The notes: generated by a model from the letters alone, not told the origin. DNA of 7,542 bases from Promethearchaeota archaeon (GCA_048939465.1 JBHLPL010000095.1:1-7542), one strand, 5' to 3'; shown: positions 123 through 7,542, numbered from the stretch's first letter. Numbers and translations are program-made.

Positions 123-191
123 CCTCAACACTCAGAATAGCCAGCAGGATAAGAAACGAGCCACTGGAAAATAGCACACATCTTGTTCTAC
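123..191 (-). other. attC site of YdeI cassette (degenerate)
   Basis: Minus strand GTAGAAC-AAGAT...CCAG...CTGG-CTATT-CTGAGT-GTTGAGG. R'' matches the cassette's core GTTCTAG at 6/7; L-box pairing is poor. An alternative R' GTTGGCG lies at 113-119. Confidence 0.6.
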
Positions 192-193
192 AT

Positions 194-760
194 TCATTTC
201 ATGCCCAATTTCTGACCTTGCTCAAGTAGAGTAATCGCCTCTCTGAGTCGTCGCTCCCTTGTCTCCTGACGCTTGGCGGCTGAGATCCAGCCCATAAATT
301 GCCTCTGATACGAAGAGGCTAGTTGATCGAAGAAGCTCTTCGCCTTTTTGTTTTTTGCCAGTGCAGAGGCCAACTCCTTGGGAATGTTCGATGGTATTCG
401 TGGCCTATCCGGTTTGTCCCACAGCCCAGATGCTTTGGCCTCCCGTATCTTCATAAGGCCGGCTTCAGTCAAAAGGCCTTGCTTCTTGAGTTCCATGATA
501 CGCTTCTTGTTTAATTCCGACCATCGACTATCAGCTTTACGAGGTGTCATCTTTCTCACATATTTCTCATCATCGATCTTCTTGATAACGCTGTCAATCC
601 AACCAAAGCATAAAGCTTCTTCAACCGCCTCATCATACTCGAGCGTGGCCTCACCTGTATGCTTCTTGTAGAAAAGCAGCCATATCCCATTGCTCTTATC
701 ATAATGCTGATTGAGCCAGTCTCTCCACTCCTTCCGCGTTTTTACGTACACTTGTTTCAT
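194..760 (-). CDS. YdeI/OmpD-associated (bacteriocin-protection-like) family protein
   Basis: 188 aa with family-typical segments 'WRDWL..H', 'EEALCFGWIDS', 'TPRK..S.WS..N', and C-terminal 'F..LA.SYQRQF..WI..AKRQETR.RR'. GGAGAG RBS follows core GTTCTAG. Confidence 0.88.
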   Translation of the reverse strand: MKQVYVKTRKEWRDWLNQHYDKSNGIWLLFYKKHTGEATLEYDEAVEEALCFGWIDSVIKKIDDEKYVRKMTPRKADSRWSELNKKRIMELKKQGLLTEAGLMKIREAKASGLWDKPDRPRIPSNIPKELASALAKNKKAKSFFDQLASSYQRQFMGWISAAKRQETRERRLREAITLLEQGQKLGMK

Positions 761-768
761 AGTCTCTC

Positions 769-830
769 CTAGAACGTAAGAGCTGAGGGGTAACCCGTCT
801 GGGATTTCTCAGCGGATGTCTTTGTTCGGA
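769..830 (-). other. attC site of ADP-ribosylglycohydrolase cassette
   Basis: TCCGAAC-AAAGACATCC-GCTGAG...CTCAGC-TCTTAC-GTTCTAG. R'' is the exact complement of the upstream core GTTCGGA. The site overlaps the last codons of the gene. Confidence 0.72.
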
Positions 831-1606
831 AATTCTGGTGAACCATACTTGGCTGCAAATTCTACAATTATATTTTGAAATGATTGAGGGATCTTACTCC
901 ACGCTTTCTCAAGTATTGAAGAAGGGATGCCTCTGTAATATGCCTCTGCGATCGCCCCAGCAATAGCTGCTTGAGTGTCAGCATCGCCCCCCAAAGAGAC
1001 TGCGTTACGGATTGCGTCTTCAAAGTCTGTCGAGTCCAAGAATGCAATGATTGCTTCAGGTACTGAACCAGGGCAAGTCAGGTTGATACTATAATCTGGT
1101 CGAATTGAATCCACTGTCCTATCAAGATCATATTCGAATCTTCCGGTGATCTGCCTTCGTATGTCTTCTTTTTCTGCACCTGACCGAGCTAAGTATATGG
1201 CTAGTGCAGTAGCCTGGGCACCTTTAATGCCCTCAGGATGATTGTGTGTGCACTCAGCACTTTTCTTCGCGTGCATCAGAACAGACTCGTCGGAATCATA
1301 GGCATGACCTACGGGACTTACTCTCATAGCTGAGCCATTTCCAAGGCTGTTATACGGTTCGATGCCCGACGATCGTACCCACAACATGAATCTAGGCCCG
1401 TAACCTCGCAGAGGGTATCGCCTTGCATAGGACTTGATCGTTTTACCGTAGCCTTTTCCATTCAGAATTGCATCTGCGACCGCGACGGTAAGTACAGTAT
1501 CGTCGGTATAGGTGCTAAGACGCGGGAATAGCTCGAAATCCTTACACTTGATGCGAAGGTTCTCACGAGTTGAGCCTATTATATCGCCTACTATTGCCCC
1601 TAGCAT
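809..1606 (-). CDS. ADP-ribosylglycohydrolase (DraG/ARH family)
   Basis: 265 aa with MLGAIVGDIIGS, TDDT, SLGNGSAMRVSP, THNHPEG and GGDADT metal-binding/catalytic motifs all intact. Confidence 0.95.
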   Translation of the reverse strand: MLGAIVGDIIGSTRENLRIKCKDFELFPRLSTYTDDTVLTVAVADAILNGKGYGKTIKSYARRYPLRGYGPRFMLWVRSSGIEPYNSLGNGSAMRVSPVGHAYDSDESVLMHAKKSAECTHNHPEGIKGAQATALAIYLARSGAEKEDIRRQITGRFEYDLDRTVDSIRPDYSINLTCPGSVPEAIIAFLDSTDFEDAIRNAVSLGGDADTQAAIAGAIAEAYYRGIPSSILEKAWSKIPQSFQNIIVEFAAKYGSPEFPNKDIR

Positions 1607-1625
1607 GTCGTCTCGCTTATGTTAT

Positions 1626-1678
1626 TCCGAACGCTTCATCTAACGCGCAAAGGAAAGGCAGGCTCAGCGCCGTTCATC
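1626..1678 (-). other. attC site of transglutaminase cassette (left half degenerate/uncertain)
   Basis: The right end GCGC-GTTAGAT-GAAGC-GTTCGGA is attC-like and there is an AACGGCGC...GCGCGTT stem. No convincing R''/L'' matching the cassette core was found. Confidence 0.45.
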
Positions 1679-1743
1679 TTCGAATTGCTATCATCTTTCT
1701 TGTTTTTATATTCCAGTGTAATGTCAACGTCCTGAAATTTCTC

Positions 1744-3264
1744 TTAAATTGCATTCCTAGTCTTCCTTTTCACTGCGTTTTCAAGCTTTTCAAAGGTGAA
1801 TTTCGGGTATCCTTGTGCTTCAGCCACGCTGAATTTCACACTGGAAGAAGCGTTCCTTGATGAGACAACTTCTACAGGGAAAACAGCGATCATTCTTTTC
1901 TCTATGTCAATTGTTGGTTTTACAATCCAGTATAGGATTTTTCTTGTGTCTGGTTCCATTAGGACCATTTGAGTATTTCTCCCCATGATTTCTAAATCAT
2001 TGGGAGTTTGAAGGGATATGTCTGTGATCACATAGAATTTGTGAGGATTTGCTACAGTTGCTTCTACAACGTTATAAGATCCTACATCTAAGTTGCGATA
2101 CCACACTGTGGGCTTTATTTCCAAAAGTGGGGTGATAGTCCCTGCTCTTTTCTTGATCTTTGTTCTTATTTCGAGATCTTTGATGGAGACAAGTGCACTA
2201 TCTGATTTCCATCCATAGGAGTTGGGTGGATCTGAAATATCAACAGATTTCCATTCATAGGAGGTAAGTGGGTCTGAAGTATCGAAAGATTCTGTGAGTT
2301 TTATATGGGTCGCATCAATGAAACCCAGTTGGTTGTATGCTACGTCAAAAGGAATCCAGCCTGCGGATGGAAAACAGACTTCCGCCCAACCGTGTGGCTT
2401 GAAGTGGATTGTATCGTTGTAATTTATACCGACAAGACCGATTATGAACTTAGCTGGAATTCCCAATGATCGGAGAAATCCAATAAATAGATTAGTCTTT
2501 TCATCACAGACACCTTTCCGATTTTCAAGAACCCATGAAGCTTTTTGCGAAGTCGAAATGGTAGAGGTATCAATATGGGCTTGCACATTTTCCCTCACCC
2601 ATTTACTCACTTCAAAGACAACTCTGTAGAGGTCATCTTCTCCTTGGGCTATAGATGAGGCAAGGGTGCGTATTTCCTCATCGTCTGAGTCAACAATCAA
2701 ACTTGGTCTTGCATATTTGATTTGCCTTGTTGGGATGGCCTGTAACGGGAAGGGTATTTTATCCGTAACTTGATAGAATTCATGCCTTGAAACAGTCTCT
2801 GCTTTTAGCCTAAATTCGTGGCGTCCTGGGGGTGGAGCATCTAATTCGAACTCTATAGAGCGGTCAACAATCTCGCCAGGTGGTATGATTTCAAGATCCG
2901 ATATCTTCTGTCGGCCATCACTCACGGGTAGAATCCTAAGGTTTGCTTTCAGATATTCTACAAAATAATTCGGTGTTTCTTGTGAAATGATTATCTGTGA
3001 ACATATCTCTGTTTCTAATGTCAGTTCTTTGGCAATTCGAAGCCTTTCACGATATTGCTCCATCATTTCTTCAGAGGACTTTATCGCAAGAGTTCTTGAT
3101 GCTGAGGGTTCGTTGATACTACAGCCAGTGTTTAACATAAGCACTGAAAATATCAGAATATTGGTCACCCAGGTCCTTCCTACTATGGTAGTGAAACAAA
3201 ACTCCATTTCCCTGCTTTCTTTGAATCTGAACACTCGATTGGCTTTCATGACAAATTTGAACAA
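1744..3264 (-). CDS. Transglutaminase-like (Cys-His-Asp) domain protein, putative lipoprotein
   Basis: 506 aa from a TTG start; the true start may be the ATG at 3249 or M20. Triad motifs are GVC253DE, PH291GWAEV and GWIPFD307. A hydrophobic stretch ends in 'LMLNTGC48' (lipobox-like). The C-terminal region is beta-rich. Confidence 0.85.
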   Translation of the reverse strand: MFKFVMKANRVFRFKESREMEFCFTTIVGRTWVTNILIFSVLMLNTGCSINEPSASRTLAIKSSEEMMEQYRERLRIAKELTLETEICSQIIISQETPNYFVEYLKANLRILPVSDGRQKISDLEIIPPGEIVDRSIEFELDAPPPGRHEFRLKAETVSRHEFYQVTDKIPFPLQAIPTRQIKYARPSLIVDSDDEEIRTLASSIAQGEDDLYRVVFEVSKWVRENVQAHIDTSTISTSQKASWVLENRKGVCDEKTNLFIGFLRSLGIPAKFIIGLVGINYNDTIHFKPHGWAEVCFPSAGWIPFDVAYNQLGFIDATHIKLTESFDTSDPLTSYEWKSVDISDPPNSYGWKSDSALVSIKDLEIRTKIKKRAGTITPLLEIKPTVWYRNLDVGSYNVVEATVANPHKFYVITDISLQTPNDLEIMGRNTQMVLMEPDTRKILYWIVKPTIDIEKRMIAVFPVEVVSSRNASSSVKFSVAEAQGYPKFTFEKLENAVKRKTRNAI

Positions 3265-3286
3265 CCTTATATGATCCAGGCCAACC

Positions 3287-3369
3287 TCTAAACAAACACT
3301 CAGGCTGACCCGCTTGCTGGAAGCACGGAGGCGCTTTAGGCAAGTCCGCTGTTTAGCCGGGTGTTATAG
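3287..3369 (-). other. attC site of GNAT cassette
   Basis: CTATAAC-ACCCG-GCTAAACAGCGGAC-TTGC...GCAA-GCGG-GTCAGCCTGAG-TGTTT-GTTTAGA (alternative R' GTTGGCC at 3279-3285). R'' matches core GTTATGG at 6/7. Confidence 0.72.
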
Positions 3370-3391
3370 TTTCTTACTCAGGTTTTATCTG

Positions 3392-3937
3392 TCATCCATC
3401 CAATTCTAGGCTCATCCAATGGTGATCATAATACTTGCCGTCAATGAATATCTCCTTTCGGATTGTTCCCTCTTTCAGAAATCCCTTCTTCTCATAAAGC
3501 GAAATAGCGCGAGTATTATCAGTACGAACACGCAAATTGATCTTCTTTATGATGTGAGTATCTCTTGCCCAAGCGATAGCAACATCAAGCATCAAGGTTC
3601 CGATTCCCCTTCCCCAGTATTGCCTTTTTACCGTCATTCCAAGTTCACCGCAATGCCTAATACGAGGGCGCTGTCCTCCTGAGAAATTCAAGACACTCAC
3701 AATTCTGCTGCTTATCAATCCGAGAATGACAAGTCTGTTTTCTGTTCCCCTATTGTTTTCTATAAATTCTTTCTCTTGTTGTTCGTTAAGTCCGAACTCT
3801 CCAGGACCGAATGTGAGGAAATCGGATTCTCCACAGACTTGTTGGACATAATCAAGTACTGAACGGGAGTCTTCAGCTGTTGCTTCACGGATAAGTAGTT
3901 TAAGACCATCATCTAATTCATGTGTTCTTGGTTCCAT
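3392..3937 (-). CDS. GNAT family N-acetyltransferase (RimJ/RimL-type)
   Basis: 181 aa with 'IREAT.EDS', acetyl-CoA motif 'YWGRGIGT', and 'V..DN.RAI.LYEK.GF..EG'. Confidence 0.92.
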   Translation of the reverse strand: MEPRTHELDDGLKLLIREATAEDSRSVLDYVQQVCGESDFLTFGPGEFGLNEQQEKEFIENNRGTENRLVILGLISSRIVSVLNFSGGQRPRIRHCGELGMTVKRQYWGRGIGTLMLDVAIAWARDTHIIKKINLRVRTDNTRAISLYEKKGFLKEGTIRKEIFIDGKYYDHHWMSLELDG

Positions 3938-3953
3938 TTTATGAATCTGTAGA

Positions 3954-4025
3954 CCATAACGATTCTTTCACCTAGTGGTGTGTAGCGCCAGCGGAACACC
4001 GATCCAGTGCAGAAATTGTGTGGGT
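3954..4025 (-). other. attC site of cytochrome c cassette (R'' degenerate)
   Basis: ACCCACAC-AATTT-CTGCAC-TGGATCGG-TGT-TCCGCTGGCGCT-ACA-CACCACTAG-GTGAA-AGAATC-GTTATGG. The AAC of R'' is replaced by CAC. Confidence 0.75.
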
Positions 4026-4064
4026 ATCTTCATTCCTTCAATGAATCATCAACATTATTCCGTA

Positions 4065-4526
4065 CTACCTGCCAGTCGGTTCTTCACCGTCCGGCGCGAT
4101 TATTTGACCCTTTTTACTGTTACGGATGATATCCGTGACAATCCTATGTGCATCTTCCTCGGTAAGTGCACCTTCGAATCTGGGCATGGCCAGTCCGAAG
4201 AATTTCCCCTTCAGGATGGTCATCACCATTTCCTCGTCTCCAGTGTTGCGCCGCCAGTCCTGGTCTGTAAAGTCCTGGCCCCTGAGTTTCTTGCCATCTG
4301 CACTAACGGCAGAGCCGTCTGCTCCATGGCACCTAGCACAGTTCTGTTGGTAGAATTCCTTCAGATCCGTTCGCTTAGGACCCTGTGTCAAAGCAGGCGT
4401 AACCCAAAGGGCAAAAACTATGGCAAAAATTAGTGCAATATTATTTGTCAGTCTGACTGGGCAACGGTATCCGATAATCACATTTCCGGATTTGCTCAAA
4501 ATATCTTGCTCCACTGATCGTTCCAT
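4065..4526 (-). CDS. Monoheme class I c-type cytochrome, exported/membrane-anchored
   Basis: CARCH heme motif, distal 'AMP' candidate Met ligand, and N-terminal hydrophobic segment 'IALIFAIVFALWVTPALTQ'. Start moved from 4598 (inside attC) to the ATG at 4526, which has GGAGG upstream (153 aa). Confidence 0.85.
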   Translation of the reverse strand: MERSVEQDILSKSGNVIIGYRCPVRLTNNIALIFAIVFALWVTPALTQGPKRTDLKEFYQQNCARCHGADGSAVSADGKKLRGQDFTDQDWRRNTGDEEMVMTILKGKFFGLAMPRFEGALTEEDAHRIVTDIIRNSKKGQIIAPDGEEPTGR

Positions 4527-4571
4527 TCTATTCCTCCATCTCTCTTTGCCATTGGGCATTTCACGTCCCTC

Positions 4572-4634
4572 TCCCAATGCACTCATCAAGGCCAGCATGA
4601 TTTATACCCTGTCCCTTCAGGCAGACTGTTGGCT
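4572..4634 (-). other. attC site of membrane-protein cassette (R' degenerate)
   Basis: AGCCAAC-AGTCT-GCCTGAAGG-GACAG...CTG-GCCTT-GATG-AGTGC-ATTGGGA. The crossover GTT reads ATT. Confidence 0.62.
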
Positions 4635-5043
4635 ATAGATTCCATTTGCTTAGAACTGTATGAAAGAATATTGGTATTGTGAATGATATAACTAAATAGA
4701 TCACATTCCCTGTGAAGCTATAGACTAAACCACACGAAAGCAAGAATAGTCCTATTAGGCCACACGCAAATGAAATAGTGCCTTGGTATCGTGATTTTTC
4801 GTAAGGATTTAGTTCAAAAAAGAATTTAATAAAAAACGAAGGGCTATATAAAGAGACAATTATTATAGTTGAACCAATACCACTAATGATTAAGCCTGTT
4901 ATTAATATTGTATTTAGTTTTGTGTATTTTTCCAACACGGGTGAAATGCCAAAATTAACGAGGAACCATAAGAAGATAATAAATGAATATATCACCCAGT
5001 TAATGGTTTTCGATGTTATGTTCCTCTCATTTTTTCGATTCAT
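4633..5043 (-). CDS. Hypothetical integral membrane protein (~4 TM segments)
   Basis: AT-rich ORF with four hydrophobic stretches. The track start at 5079 is a TTG inside attC; the first ATG after the core GTTCGGC is at 5043 (136 aa, MNRKNERN...). No family recognised. Confidence 0.7.
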   Translation of the reverse strand: MNRKNERNITSKTINWVIYSFIIFLWFLVNFGISPVLEKYTKLNTILITGLIISGIGSTIIIVSLYSPSFFIKFFFELNPYEKSRYQGTISFACGLIGLFLLSCGLVYSFTGNVIYLVISFTIPIFFHTVLSKWNL

Positions 5044-5052
5044 TTTGCTGTA

Positions 5053-5127
5053 GCCGAACCTGCAAATAGCCGGATGCAAATGAAGCGTAGCGGAATTTCC
5101 AGCCCGAGCTAATTTGCTTTGTTAGCT
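5053..5127 (-). other. attC site of GT2 cassette (best preserved)
   Basis: AGCTAAC-AAA-GCAAAT(T)AGC-(T)CGG..GAAAT-TCCGCTACGCTTC-ATTT..CCG-GCTATTTGC-AG-GTTCGGC. It has intact AAC/GTT boxes and paired L boxes with one extrahelical base. Confidence 0.9.
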
Positions 5128-5756
5128 TTCTTATCGAACTTTATAAAAAGCCATGGCAATAAATAAAAAAACTGCCTAAAGTGGAACCACGCGATTTTCC
5201 GTGGTTTGTTAATTTTTTGTAATGTAATAGGTATTTCTACTATTCTCCCGCCTTTTGAAACCACTTCTAAAGAAAATACACCACAGATGCAAGCGCCCTT
5301 TATTTCCAATGATCTAGCCAAGTGAGTTCGTATCGCACGTAAGCCCGTGCCAGAGTCTCCTACTGGGGCTTTCTTTTGAGCCAACCAAGTTAGAACTCGT
5401 TCTGATGGTCTGGGGATGATGTTTCGATGTCCCTGAACCATATCAGCGTAACCATCAATAAGCGGTTTGAGCAAATCAGGGACTTCTTGAGCTGAGAATT
5501 CTCCATCCGCATCTAGTGTAATGACAATTTCACCACTGGCTTCCTTGAAACCATATTTAATTGCATTTATATAGCCTTTGTTTTTTGGTTGAGTTAAAAC
5601 ATTAGCTCCAGAATTTCTTGCAAGATCACCAGTACTATCTGTACTGGCATCGTCCACTACGATGATTTCATCAACAAATGGCTTAACCTGATTTAACGTT
5701 TGAACAATTCTATTAGCTTCATTATATGCAGGTATTACAGCAGTAACTGTCGACAT
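5109..5756 (-). CDS. Glycosyltransferase family 2 (DPM-synthase-like)
   Basis: 215 aa with 'VIPAYNE', 'IIVVDDASTD', 'NKGY..AIK.G', DxD motif 'LDADG' and 'GDSGTGLRA'. Confidence 0.93.
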   Translation of the reverse strand: MSTVTAVIPAYNEANRIVQTLNQVKPFVDEIIVVDDASTDSTGDLARNSGANVLTQPKNKGYINAIKYGFKEASGEIVITLDADGEFSAQEVPDLLKPLIDGYADMVQGHRNIIPRPSERVLTWLAQKKAPVGDSGTGLRAIRTHLARSLEIKGACICGVFSLEVVSKGGRIVEIPITLQKINKPRKIAWFHFRQFFYLLPWLFIKFDKKANKAN

Positions 5757-5778
5757 ATACTTTTTCCTATCACTGAAA

Positions 5779-5853
5779 ATCTAACACTATGCTCGGCTGT
5801 GTTTAGGAGCGGCAAAGCCGCGAGTAAACATCAGTTGTAGCAACTTGCTATGG
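5779..5853 (-). other. attC site of GAF cassette (R'' AAC>AGC)
   Basis: CCATAGC-AAGTT-GCTACAACTGA-TGTTTA-CTC-GCGGC-TTT-GCCGC-TCC-TAAACA-CAGCCGAGC-ATAGT-GTTAGAT, a clear nested stem. Confidence 0.85.
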
Positions 5854-6561
5854 TTTCTTTTTTCCTTTTTGATACCAAGGCTCATCTCCATACAGAGCGT
5901 CTATGCATTCTTCACAAAGTCCATGACTAAATTGAGCGTTTGAATGATCTTCAATATATTTCTCGACCTGAGTCCAAAAACCTTCACTATCTCTAATTCT
6001 CTTACATCTCGCACAGATGGGGATGATCCCTCTCAGAGTCTCTATTTCATCAAGATAGTCCAAAAGCCCCTTATTCTCCTCTCCCAAAATAGTATTCATA
6101 TACACAAGCGCTAGCTGGGACTGGATTATGTCACGAAAGTTTATGATTAGGTTTTCATAAGTATCTGAATAGGCATTTTCTTTGTTATCAAGCACGCATA
6201 TAGTCCCAAAAGGTCTTCCATCTGGGAAAAGAATTGGAAATCCCAAATAAGAAATCATATTCAATTTTATGTCAGGATTATTTTTCCATTTTTCATTTTT
6301 AAGCGCATTGGGGACTAGGAGTTTGTCGTTTGAACCAATCACGGTTTCACAATACAATCCAGATCCCAGAAAATGCTCACGATTTCCGGGATTGTAAGGA
6401 TTTCCCTGGCTTTTGCTTGAAACAAAAACCTCGATATCAGTTTCGACAAGCCGCATGATGAGTGCGGAAGGAATGCCAAGCAAATCCGCTAAGATATCGA
6501 CAATATTTTGCCATCTGTTTAATATATCTTTAGGTATTTCAATTTGATTATTTACGTACAA
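5848..6561 (-). CDS. GAF domain protein with C-terminal Cys/His-rich domain
   Basis: 237 aa, TTG start with GGAG 8 nt upstream. GAF signature 'LYCETVI....LLVPNA....W..NPD....MISYLGFPI..PDGRPFGTICVLD'. The C-terminus reads 'LRGIIPICARCKRIRD..GFW..VEKYI..HS.AQFSHGLCEEC...LY'. Confidence 0.88.
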   Translation of the reverse strand: MYVNNQIEIPKDILNRWQNIVDILADLLGIPSALIMRLVETDIEVFVSSKSQGNPYNPGNREHFLGSGLYCETVIGSNDKLLVPNALKNEKWKNNPDIKLNMISYLGFPILFPDGRPFGTICVLDNKENAYSDTYENLIINFRDIIQSQLALVYMNTILGEENKGLLDYLDEIETLRGIIPICARCKRIRDSEGFWTQVEKYIEDHSNAQFSHGLCEECIDALYGDEPWYQKGKKKP

Positions 6562-6571
6562 TGTCTTGACT

Positions 6572-6642
6572 CCACAACGGCTGAAAATAATGACCCGGCG
6601 GTCTTTTCCCCCGGCCCCGTTGTTTTCGATGCTGTGTTGATT
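6572..6642 (-). other. attC site of DUF2750 cassette
   Basis: AATCAAC-ACAGC-ATCGAAAA...GGCCGG-GGAAAAGA-CCGCCGGGTC...TTTTC-AGCC-GTTGTGG with intact AAC/GTT boxes. Confidence 0.8.
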
Positions 6643-6968
6643 CAGTGCAGTATATGATTTAGAAATTCCTCTTTTGTGAGAACTAAATTTTTTGTGTCTT
6701 CTGCCATTGGATTTATTATCAATTCATCAAAATCCATACCTCCCTCACTTAGCCAGACTACTCTAAAAGTACTTAAAGGAATTTCAACTGGTCTAACTGA
6801 ATCGATAGATTCATTTGAGATATAATCTACCGCATTTTCCTTGTTGGGCCAAACCGGAAGAGCTGAGTTTCCTTCATCGTCAGATAGGATTAGCACATCG
6901 ATATTTTTAATTGCTACCCATACATTTCCATTTTCCAATACTTCTTGAAAAAATTCATCTTTGTTCAT
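6642..6968 (-). CDS. DUF2750-like small acidic protein
   Basis: 108 aa; 'FF.EV......VW', 'ALPVWP..E.A' and 'VEIPL..F...WL' resemble DUF2750. GGGAG lies upstream. Confidence 0.62.
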   Translation of the reverse strand: MNKDEFFQEVLENGNVWVAIKNIDVLILSDDEGNSALPVWPNKENAVDYISNESIDSVRPVEIPLSTFRVVWLSEGGMDFDELIINPMAEDTKNLVLTKEEFLNHILH

Positions 6969-7000
6969 GACTTCTATAACTCCCTTTTTCGAAACACACT

Positions 7001-7067
7001 AATCAGCTTGAGGAGCGTAAGAGAAGCAGTAGCGTAACTCTCGTCCTTCTCTAAGCTCTTGTTGGGC
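7001..7067 (-). other. attC site of AAC(2')-like cassette (R' end apparently deleted/decayed)
   Basis: GCCCAAC-AAGA-GCTTAGAG-AAGGA-CG-AGAG-TTACGCTACTGCTT-CTCT-TACG-CTCCT-CAAGC-TGATT. L'' and L' pair, but L' runs directly into TGATT with no spacer or GTT. Confidence 0.7.
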
Positions 7068-7088
7068 GAATATTCATGAATTTCGCCC
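7064..7088. repeat. Near-perfect 25-bp palindrome in cassette 3' UTR
   Basis: gggcgaa-t-attcatgaat-ttcgccc; it overlaps R'' of the adjacent attC and has no U-tract on either strand. Confidence 0.6.
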
Positions 7089-7103
7089 GATCCATCTGAA
7101 GGA

Positions 7104-7542
7104 TTACCAAGGAAGGGCACATAAATCTATCGCTCCTGTTTGCCATGGTATCTGCCCACGTTCAAAAACCATCATAAGTCTTGGGAATATCATTTTACCT
7201 TGTGGCTGATAGAACGAAGTAGGACCATCAACAACCTTCCATCCAAGTTTTTCATAAAAAGAAGCTACTTCATCTCTGCAAAGCAATAGTCCAAAATCAA
7301 TATTAAAATCGCTAGAGATAAATACCGCCGTGTTTTTGAGCATACAACTGCCAATTCCATTTCTTGTACATTCAGATCGGGTTATTACGCCGGTAATTCC
7401 GCCCACATTCAGAGAATGCTTATTAAAAGATATCTTACGCTCAAGGATATTTACCCTCCTGATTATCTCAGAGTCAGATGTTGAACGAACATAATATTCC
7501 GGTTGAGCCCATTGAATAGGAATGTTGCCGAATTCTTCATTG
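7104..7542 (-). CDS. GNAT acetyltransferase, AAC(2')-like/Eis N-terminal type (5'-partial)
   Basis: The frame stays open from the track's GTG at 7406 to the window edge (…NEEFGNIPIQWAQPEYYVRSTSDSEIIRRVNILERKISFNKHSLNVGGITGV…). Motifs are 'GGITGVIT', 'RNGIGS', 'FYEKLGW', 'GPTSF.QPQG' and terminal 'IDLCALPW'. Confidence 0.82.
   Translation of the reverse strand, partial: NEEFGNIPIQWAQPEYYVRSTSDSEIIRRVNILERKISFNKHSLNVGGITGVITRSECTRNGIGSCMLKNTAVFISSDFNIDFGLLLCRDEVASFYEKLGWKVVDGPTSFYQPQGKMIFPRLMMVFERGQIPWQTGAIDLCALPW

Follow-up and report, generated by a model that had tools for sequence, protein, structure and literature searches.

Gene content of the contig

The window analysed here, a stretch of 7542 bp, is the entire contig C26 of a metagenome-assembled genome (MAG) whose class label, Odinarchaeia (Asgard), was taken as given. 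The MAG comprises 152 contigs and 1.96 Mb, with a completeness of 91% and a contamination of 3.8%. The minus strand of the window is filled by ten co-oriented open reading frames (ORFs) that belong to unrelated families, and the G+C content of the individual units varies from 0.33 to 0.51 along the window. An original prediction had called the stretch an environmental integron cassette array, possibly a cluster of attC sites lacking an integron integrase (CALIN), with unrelated cargo, no known resistance cassette and possibly a Desulfobacterota-like host. Our analysis arrives at an element of this kind: an array of nine whole cassettes plus a tenth that the contig end truncates, which we read, with a probability of roughly 0.8, as a CALIN or decayed chromosomal integron on a Desulfobacterales-type contig that was mis-binned into the Odinarchaeia MAG. 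Each unit consists of a single promoterless gene with an imperfect inverted-repeat site 3′ of it.

The cargo is free of recognised resistance genes, as had been predicted. No protein of the window reaches an NCBIfam resistance cut-off, the best matches being AAC-type profiles at 19-24 bits against cut-offs of 250-400 bits, and no other resistance family among the NCBIfam profiles is matched. Exact-sequence look-ups for two of the window proteins returned no record, the records of the genome itself being excluded.

Cassette boundaries in related contigs

The units are delimited by comparing the window, at the DNA level, with the related metagenome contigs L107, L118, L136, L217, L218 and L289. 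Homology breaks on G↓TT (the arrow marks the joint) at six window positions, G6995, G6578, G5785, G5059, G3265 and G775; a seventh break, at 4578, is on A↓TT. Seven of the ten joints are thus placed by comparison, and for these the GTT core that had been predicted at every boundary is located by a breakpoint (six G↓TT, one A↓TT); the other three are proposed positions. The start codon lies 15-29 nt past the joint in each complete cassette, in the cytochrome c unit only if ATG 4559 is the start; such spacing is usual for cassettes. Five of the genes, encoding the DUF2750, GAF-domain, GT2 glycosyltransferase, transglutaminase-like and OmdA proteins, have copies in other contigs that are 84-89% identical in DNA sequence and lie between unrelated flanks.

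The DUF2750 unit (window 6993-6576) corresponds to L107 5288-5705 at 89% DNA identity, with unrelated flanks on either side. In L107 this block opens at the G↓TT of a canonical attC (5223-5293; 17.2 bits in covariance model R1, described below), and both copies end at GTT; a DUF2750 protein 86% identical to that of the window is encoded on metagenome contigs. The GAF unit (window 6578-5799) matches L136 2066-2849 at 85% and opens at G↓TT(G/A)TGGAG, the upstream DNA being unrelated. The GT2 unit (window 5785-5064) matches L118 672-1389, also at 85%; both copies open at G↓TTAGATTTTC between unrelated flanks, and the homology ends about 5 nt before the next G↓TT, within the short 3′ spacer of the attC.

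Two sister arrays, on L217 and on L289, the 33.9-kb JGI contig Ga0568874_0000899, are 95.5-97% identical to the window and lack exactly window 5784-4578. The limits of this deletion run from after G5785 to before T4577, that is, from G↓TT to ↓TT. In both sisters the attC of the GAF cassette ends in CATAGTG and is followed directly by TTGGCGGAGGG, the start of the cytochrome c unit. The start of this cassette, TTGG(G/C)(A/G)GAGGG, is preceded by G in L217 and by A in the window. A contig from the marsh metagenome run X6 has a joint identical to that of L217 and L289, with the GT2 cassette absent. From these joints, the GT2 and membrane-protein units of the window are read as an insertion or deletion of two cassettes.

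A third arrangement is found in L218, where the transglutaminase unit (86% identical; L218 1427-2977, ending at the inverse core R″) is followed directly by the OmdA unit (L218 3051-3640, 86% identical), which opens one base before the window joint G775↓TT. The ADP-ribosylglycohydrolase unit that separates the two in the window is missing, and the blocks open at window G3265↓TT and G775↓TT. Homologues of the ADP-ribosylglycohydrolase gene in Competibacter and Verrucomicrobiota sit between attC matches. These comparisons show that the window units are separate mobile cassettes, which in related DNA are present or absent or have other neighbours.

Homology ends at R″ in more diverged copies (L218 2978-3050, L121/L122 and L135, compared with window 1708, 5121 and 5849, respectively). 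In these diverged copies of three cassettes the gene is retained while the attC site differs.

attC sites

Two covariance models were built to score the sites. R1 was derived from 14 aligned attC sites located downstream of named class 1 cassettes (including aadA2, catB3, aac(6′) and blaIMP) in five plasmid records, and its training sites score 27-68 bits; R2 was built from 23 environmental hits only. Control attC sites outside the training set were found at 14-41 bits, among them sites beside the intact intI of the Asgard MAG G028 (32.7 and 24.1 bits in R1) and sites in cyanobacterial and Tenderia integrons (29.3 and 27.0 bits in R1). R1 also detects attC sites beside homologues of window genes in Competibacter. 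Within the window, three junctions score 11.7, 10.6 and 10.3 bits in R2 (E 0.26-0.56), each on the strand expected, and the matches of this model elsewhere are noise. An alignment of 34 attC sites made with MAFFT misaligned the L′ boxes and was not used for a model. An Rfam scan of the window matched nothing, Rfam having no attC family.

An AAC-type inverse core (R″) and an intervening hairpin had been predicted at every boundary together with the GTT core (R′, consensus GTTRRRY). This part of the prediction stands for four of the ten sites, at 6642-6572, 5853-5779, 5127-5053 and 830-769, which fold into a hairpin that pairs AAC with GTT and have bottom-strand z-scores of -1.0 to -3.1; the other six do not fold in this way. 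For comparison, the median fold z-score of 15 control attC sites is about -3. These four follow the attC fold, in which R and L boxes pair around an unpaired central spacer and some bases are extrahelical; bulged bases are present on the R″-L″ arm of the sites at 5853-5779 and 5127-5053. When whole intergenic regions were folded, z-scores were mostly not better than those of shuffles, and RNAalifold on homologous attC copies (2-4 sequences) was uninformative. AAC and GTT triplets by themselves are too frequent to be evidence, and from structure and model score alone a core, inverse core and hairpin at every boundary are not established. The proposed sites are 62-136 nt long and heterogeneous in sequence.

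The site of the GAF cassette can be followed through its homologous copies. R2, which was trained on other loci, scores it at 21 bits in L136, 17.5 bits in L217 and L289, and 10.6 bits in the window. The window copy differs from its homologues by a change of AAC to AGC in R″ and by two altered L-box pairs.

When a cassette circularises, complementarity is expected between R″ (consensus RYYYAAC) and the start of the same cassette. In L118 and L136, whose R′ positions are set by homology, R″ (ATCTAAC and CCATAAC, respectively) is complementary at 7/7 positions to the sequence formed by G and the six bases that open the cassette. In the window the match is 7/7 for cassette 2, 6/7 for cassettes 7, 4 and 1, and at best 5/7 for the remaining ones; each junction offers several candidate triplets, and these matches are by themselves only weakly significant.

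The ten cassettes and their sites

All cassettes and sites lie on the minus strand and are described here in the direction of transcription. Cassette 10 (6995-7542), truncated by the contig end, carries a GNAT gene (7541-7104; Acetyltransf_9 by Pfam), of which a complete 170-aa version is present in L217 and L289. Its 3′ site extends from R″ GCCCAAC (7067-7061) to R′ GTTTCGA (6995-6989), the latter set by the start of the DUF2750 homology block. Read by eye, this site (7067-6989) forms an L-box stem with a single bulged A, and the R boxes are unpaired in the predicted fold. Cassette 9 (6578-6994) contains the DUF2750 gene (6968-6642) and an attC-like site at 6642-6572 with R″ AATCAAC and R′ GTTGTGG, in which CAAC pairs with GTTG in the hairpin; CGAAAAC and AAACAAC were first readings of this R″ and were replaced once the breakpoints were known. 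Cassette 8 (5785-6577) encodes a GAF-domain protein with a Cys-rich C terminus (gene 6561-5848). In its attC (5853-5779; bottom-strand fold z -3.05), R″ CCATAGC overlaps the stop codon and R′ is GTTAGAT. Cassette 7 (5059-5784) carries the GT2 glycosyltransferase gene (5756-5109) and an attC at 5127-5053 with R″ AGCTAAC and R′ GTTCGGC.

Cassette 6 (4578-5058) encodes a membrane protein without a known family (ATG 5043 to 4633). Its left boundary was placed by the end of the homology with L118, and its weak 3′ site runs from R″ AGCCAAC (4634-4628) to ATTGGGA (4578-4572), with an unconvincing hairpin. Cassette 5 (3960-4577) encodes a c-type cytochrome with a signal peptide, with a probable start at GTG 4481 or ATG 4559 and a stop at 4065. 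The annotated start of this gene, ATG 4598, was not accepted, as it would place the start codon upstream of the boundary of the cassette (4578). The proposed site of cassette 5 extends from R″ GAAGAAC (4085-4079) to R′ GTTATGG (3960-3954), with a putative right-hand boundary. A contig of the X6 run joins 3968 to 4081 here, the interior of the site that follows the cytochrome c gene (3969-4080) being replaced or missing in that population.

Cassette 4 (3265-3959) contains a second GNAT acetyltransferase gene (3937-3392, Pfam) and a proposed site from R″ CTATAAC (3369-3363) to R′ GTTGTTC (3265-3259). Its R′ was placed by the start of the transglutaminase block relative to L218, replacing a first reading at 3297 once the breakpoints were known, and its R″ gives a 6/7 match to the complement of the first bases of the cassette, TTATGG. 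Cassette 3 (1632-3264) encodes the transglutaminase-like protein (ATG 3249 to 1744), and its proposed site, from R″ TAAAAAC (1708-1702) to R′ GTTCGGA (1632-1626), folds poorly. The protein is 97% identical to one encoded on L217, and its close cassette-borne relatives are 54-97% identical. The next relatives, at 35-41%, measure about 650-690 aa; some are named as Woesearchaeota or Nanoarchaeota and most are without a name. The gene also holds a tandem 42-nt duplication at 2204-2287 (copies 81% identical), which yields a repeated stretch of 14 residues.

Cassette 2 (775-1631) carries the ADP-ribosylglycohydrolase gene (1606-809). Its attC (830-769; z -2.1) has R″ TCCGAAC within the 3′ end of the gene, complementary at 7/7 positions to G↓TTCGGA, where the cassette is proposed to start, and R′ GTTCTAG, with GAAC pairing to GTTC. 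Cassette 1 (123-774) encodes an OmdA/YdeI-family protein (gene 760-194) and is closed by a proposed site from R″ GTAGAAC (191-185) to R′ GTTGAGG (129-123), where the left end is putative and a hairpin is absent.

An integrase remnant at the head of a sister array

The original prediction placed attI, the promoter Pc and intI upstream of the first cassette, to the right of position 7542, and proposed a search there for an integrase. The sister contig L289 reaches 10.9 kb past this end of the window and bears out the position: beyond 7542 it contains one further cassette-like gene (190 aa) and then a gap of 420 nt, in which a tblastn search with the IntI of G028 matches residues 287-313. The translated gap segment LDHLDVKTTMIYIHFRNKSKLEVKSPLG aligns with a 28-residue segment of IntI1, and the remnant LDHLDVKTTMIYIHF...VKSPLG aligns with the C termini of IntI1 and the G028 IntI. 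What is left of intI amounts to about 35 C-terminal codons, located about 1.2 kb past 7542 in the same orientation as the cassettes and abutting a HAD hydrolase gene. The elements themselves were not recovered: no intact intI, attI or Pc is seen to the right of 7542 in L289, and no tyrosine recombinase lies within 10 kb upstream there. Across the whole MAG, the integron integrase profile TIGR02249 gives no match above its cut-off. With the local integrase reduced to a remnant, the array is read as a CALIN or decayed chromosomal integron.

Further upstream in L289, co-oriented small genes are followed by genes for Usp, Fer4, HD, Hcp, a cold-shock protein and a PAS kinase. A short dispersed repeat at L289 5424-5470 stands between these chromosomal genes and the start of the row of co-oriented genes, and it is matched at several places in the 'delta proteobacterium' MAG G043.

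An intact integron integrase is present in another Asgard MAG, G028, whose estimated contamination is about 9%. It is encoded at 7052-8353 of locus L014 (contig C94), scores 429 bits and is 46% identical to IntI1; attC matches at 9303-9372 and 13651-13722 lie downstream of it on the same strand.

Host of the array

A 47-nt palindromic dispersed repeat, resembling repetitive extragenic palindromic (REP) elements, occupies positions 64-110, past the last cassette, with its core CCCGCGCTGCAAGCAGCGGGG at 76-96. In contigs of four runs aligned to the window, depth at the left end is 30- to 200-fold above that elsewhere, and the repeat has many differing flanks, which diverge at 63-70 and at 109-110. 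The 21-nt core has 54 exact matches among 185,579 GTDB species representatives, all in MAGs labelled Desulfobacterales, Desulfobacteraceae, Desulfatibia, Desulfatiglandales or 'delta proteobacterium'. At least 23 and at least 34 copies of the whole element are found in two Desulfobacterales-type genomes; with up to 2 mismatches allowed, neither 300 other Asgard genomes nor the remaining contigs of the MAG contain it. A clustered regularly interspaced short palindromic repeat (CRISPR) was considered for 64-110 and rejected, the copies being single and dispersed rather than arrayed.

The chromosomal flank of the sister array and the proteins of the window lead to the same lineage. In L289, the Hcp-HD-Fer4 block is syntenic with two Desulfobacterales genomes at 65-72% DNA identity, and 20 Asgard relatives yield a single small match to it; outside the array, no part of L289 is present in the MAG. 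The cytochrome c has its best relatives in Desulfatiglans and Desulfobacterales (58-73% amino-acid identity), the nearest relative of the GAF protein is from Desulforhopalus (78%), and the ADP-ribosylglycohydrolase has relatives in diverse bacteria (up to 75%). At the DNA level, the window gives only two short matches in the 20 Asgard relatives, at chance level or to gene fragments, and same-genus genomes have no synteny with it. On the strength of the repeat, the L289 chromosomal flank and the closest protein relatives, we read the contig as wrongly binned with the archaeal contigs. An uncultured marsh or sediment bacterium of Desulfobacterales type (Desulfobacterota) is its most likely carrier, in keeping with the host first predicted, even though the contig is binned in an Asgard MAG.

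In the Candidatus Desulfatibia MAG G045, homologues of the GAF and ADP-ribosylglycohydrolase genes are adjacent at about 1500-2850 of L273 (contig C101), with a weak attC-model match (12.2 bits) between them; the two may belong to a related cassette array, in a genome where the 47-nt repeat occurs as well. A second small contig of the source MAG itself, C97 (locus L117, 1-4193), is a cassette array with canonical attC sites, scoring 41.5, 15.5, 13.9 and 11.8 bits in R1 on the minus strand. Its cassette proteins are without a Pfam family, and a 60-aa ORF (3290-3108) matches the C terminus of integron integrases.

Comparison with known systems

CALINs and sedentary chromosomal integrons are said to have been defined with IntegronFinder by Cury et al. 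2016. The window resembles a CALIN or decayed sedentary integron in its co-oriented promoterless single-gene cassettes of unrelated function, its G↓TT joints and the imperfect palindrome at the 3′ end of each unit. It shares with them, too, the lack of an integrase nearby, the variation of cassettes between close relatives and an environmental, non-resistance cargo. It departs from the CALIN norm in that its sites are sub-significant in two attC models and several of them have no R/L-box hairpin. The sites are also heterogeneous in sequence and length, whereas many sedentary chromosomal integrons have homogeneous attC sites. With the cassettes of class 1 mobile integrons the window units share the G↓TT joint, the R″ and R′ inverse cores and a short 5′ untranslated region. 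Unlike class 1 integrons, the array has no intI1, attI1, Pc, 3′ conserved segment or resistance gene, and in sequence and geometry its attC sites differ strongly from the class 1 consensus (no more than 9.6 bits in R1, whose training sites score 27-68 bits).

Integron arrays have been described in 75 archaeal MAGs, enriched in Asgard archaea and mostly in the form of CALINs (Ghaly et al. 2022, Sci Adv, PMC9668308). The window is like these archaeal CALINs in lying on a short Asgard-MAG contig with no intI on the contig, the commonest form there; it is unlike them in that its contig traces to a Desulfobacterales-type bacterium. Marker genes were able to confirm an archaeal origin on only seven of the integron-bearing contigs in that study (PMC9668308). 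The same work mentions 'reverse orientation' IntIs typical of Spirochaetota (PMC9668308). In such integrons intI lies in the orientation of the cassettes. The intI remnant of L289 likewise points towards the cassettes, and the intact intI of G028 has attC sites downstream on its own strand; unlike reverse-orientation integrons, L289 keeps only about 35 C-terminal intI codons.

Weighing the interpretation

In the proposed mechanism, an integron integrase would have created the joints by recombining folded bottom strands of attC, the crossover falling between the G and the TT of the R′ core. The cassette genes would probably be transcribed by read-through from an upstream promoter, and any movement of the cassettes would now depend on an integrase provided in trans. 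The degenerate state of several attC sites fits such decay.

A number of results speak against this interpretation or limit it. A covariance-model search was among the checks first proposed; neither model gives a significant match in the window (best 11.7 bits, E 0.26), and the best R1 match, at 9.6 bits, falls within the DUF2750 coding sequence. Both are home-made models, derived from only 14 and 23 sequences, and differ from the model of IntegronFinder. Six of the ten sites have bottom-strand z-scores of -0.3 to +1.1 and no AAC-GTT hairpin. The joints at G3960, G1632 and G129 are inferred only, and that at 4578 reads A↓TT instead of G↓TT. No related contig contains an intact integrase or attI, and five Desulfobacterales genomes with the 47-nt repeat have no intI above the cut-off, only Xer-like scores. 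As to the host, Hcp is prone to transfer and archaeal Hcp matches are only a few percent lower; the tetranucleotide distance of the contig to the MAG, at the 90th percentile, does not flag it as foreign; and the depth data are contig-level along the window, not contig against MAG.

Four other explanations were considered. The best placed of them, although we regard it as improbable, is that the array truly belongs to the Odinarchaeia genome. It would then be an archaeal CALIN like those of Ghaly et al. 2022, and a Desulfobacterales bacterium might have come to share it recently. The contig was, after all, binned into a MAG of 91% completeness and 3.8% contamination, within whose range its tetranucleotide profile falls, and that MAG has in C97 another contig with canonical attC sites. 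The published enrichment of integrons and CALINs in Asgard MAGs (PMC9668308) and the intact intI of one Asgard MAG among the relatives, G028, fit as well. Set against this are the Desulfobacterales-specific repeat on the contig, found in no other Asgard genome searched, and the near-identical array of L289, which is joined to a chromosome syntenic with Desulfobacterales of which nothing occurs in the MAG. The nearest protein relatives are bacterial, and canonical attC sites are lacking in same-genus and same-order genomes (one closed) and in the closed Asgard genomes among 40 relatives.

A very recent cross-domain transfer, which would have left nearly the same array in both a Desulfobacterales bacterium and the Odinarchaeia archaeon of the MAG, seems to us quite unlikely. 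If true, it would mean that the cross-domain transfer of a whole integron array segment had been caught in one sediment community.

We give as little credence to an integron-like cassette system with another recombinase and a divergent class of site. Such a system would explain the failure of canonical attC models, the atypical geometry with long unpaired L′-R′ stretches at 7067-6989, the spacers of 8 vs 4 and 10 vs 6 nt and the single A↓TT joint. Yet the joints are the canonical G↓TT, the cassettes begin with bases complementary to R″, which is also the case in attC, one cassette adjoins an attC of canonical type, and an attC model recognises related copies of one site. The sole trace of a recombinase is IntI-like, and no junction repeat is common to the joints of the window.

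Least plausible is an ordinary accessory island or set of operons, with terminators or REP elements as its hairpins and generic deletion or illegitimate recombination behind the differences between contigs: noise-level attC scores, an empty Rfam scan, folding energies that at most junctions are not better than those of shuffles and a genuine REP-like repeat at 64-110 would suit it, but at seven independent breakpoints the sequence reads G↓TT or A↓TT, directly before a ribosome-binding site and start codon, single-gene units stand between unrelated flanks in five other contigs, one of them opening at a canonical attC, homologous copies of one site score 17.5-21 bits, and an intI remnant heads the sister array.

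Implications

The architecture of an integron cassette array or CALIN is already known, and the window is a further, ordinary example of it: CALINs that carry GNATs, DUFs and small enzymes are common in the environment. It illustrates how a cassette array binned into an Asgard MAG can get through filters based on composition and yet be traced to a bacterium. The published Asgard enrichment of integrons rests mostly on short contigs without markers (PMC9668308), and linkage or coverage checks are therefore needed. Among the 40 relatives searched here, a small sample, canonical attC matches occur only in multi-contig MAGs and in no closed genome, which together with the present contig speaks for checks of linkage. 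The 47-nt repeat is usable as a lineage marker for stray contigs of this kind.

Although the cassettes of this array clearly moved at G↓TT, attC models built from canonical sites miss most of the 3′ sites, and model-based surveys may therefore under-count decayed or divergent arrays. The comparison of near-identical arrays offers a model-free route to them.

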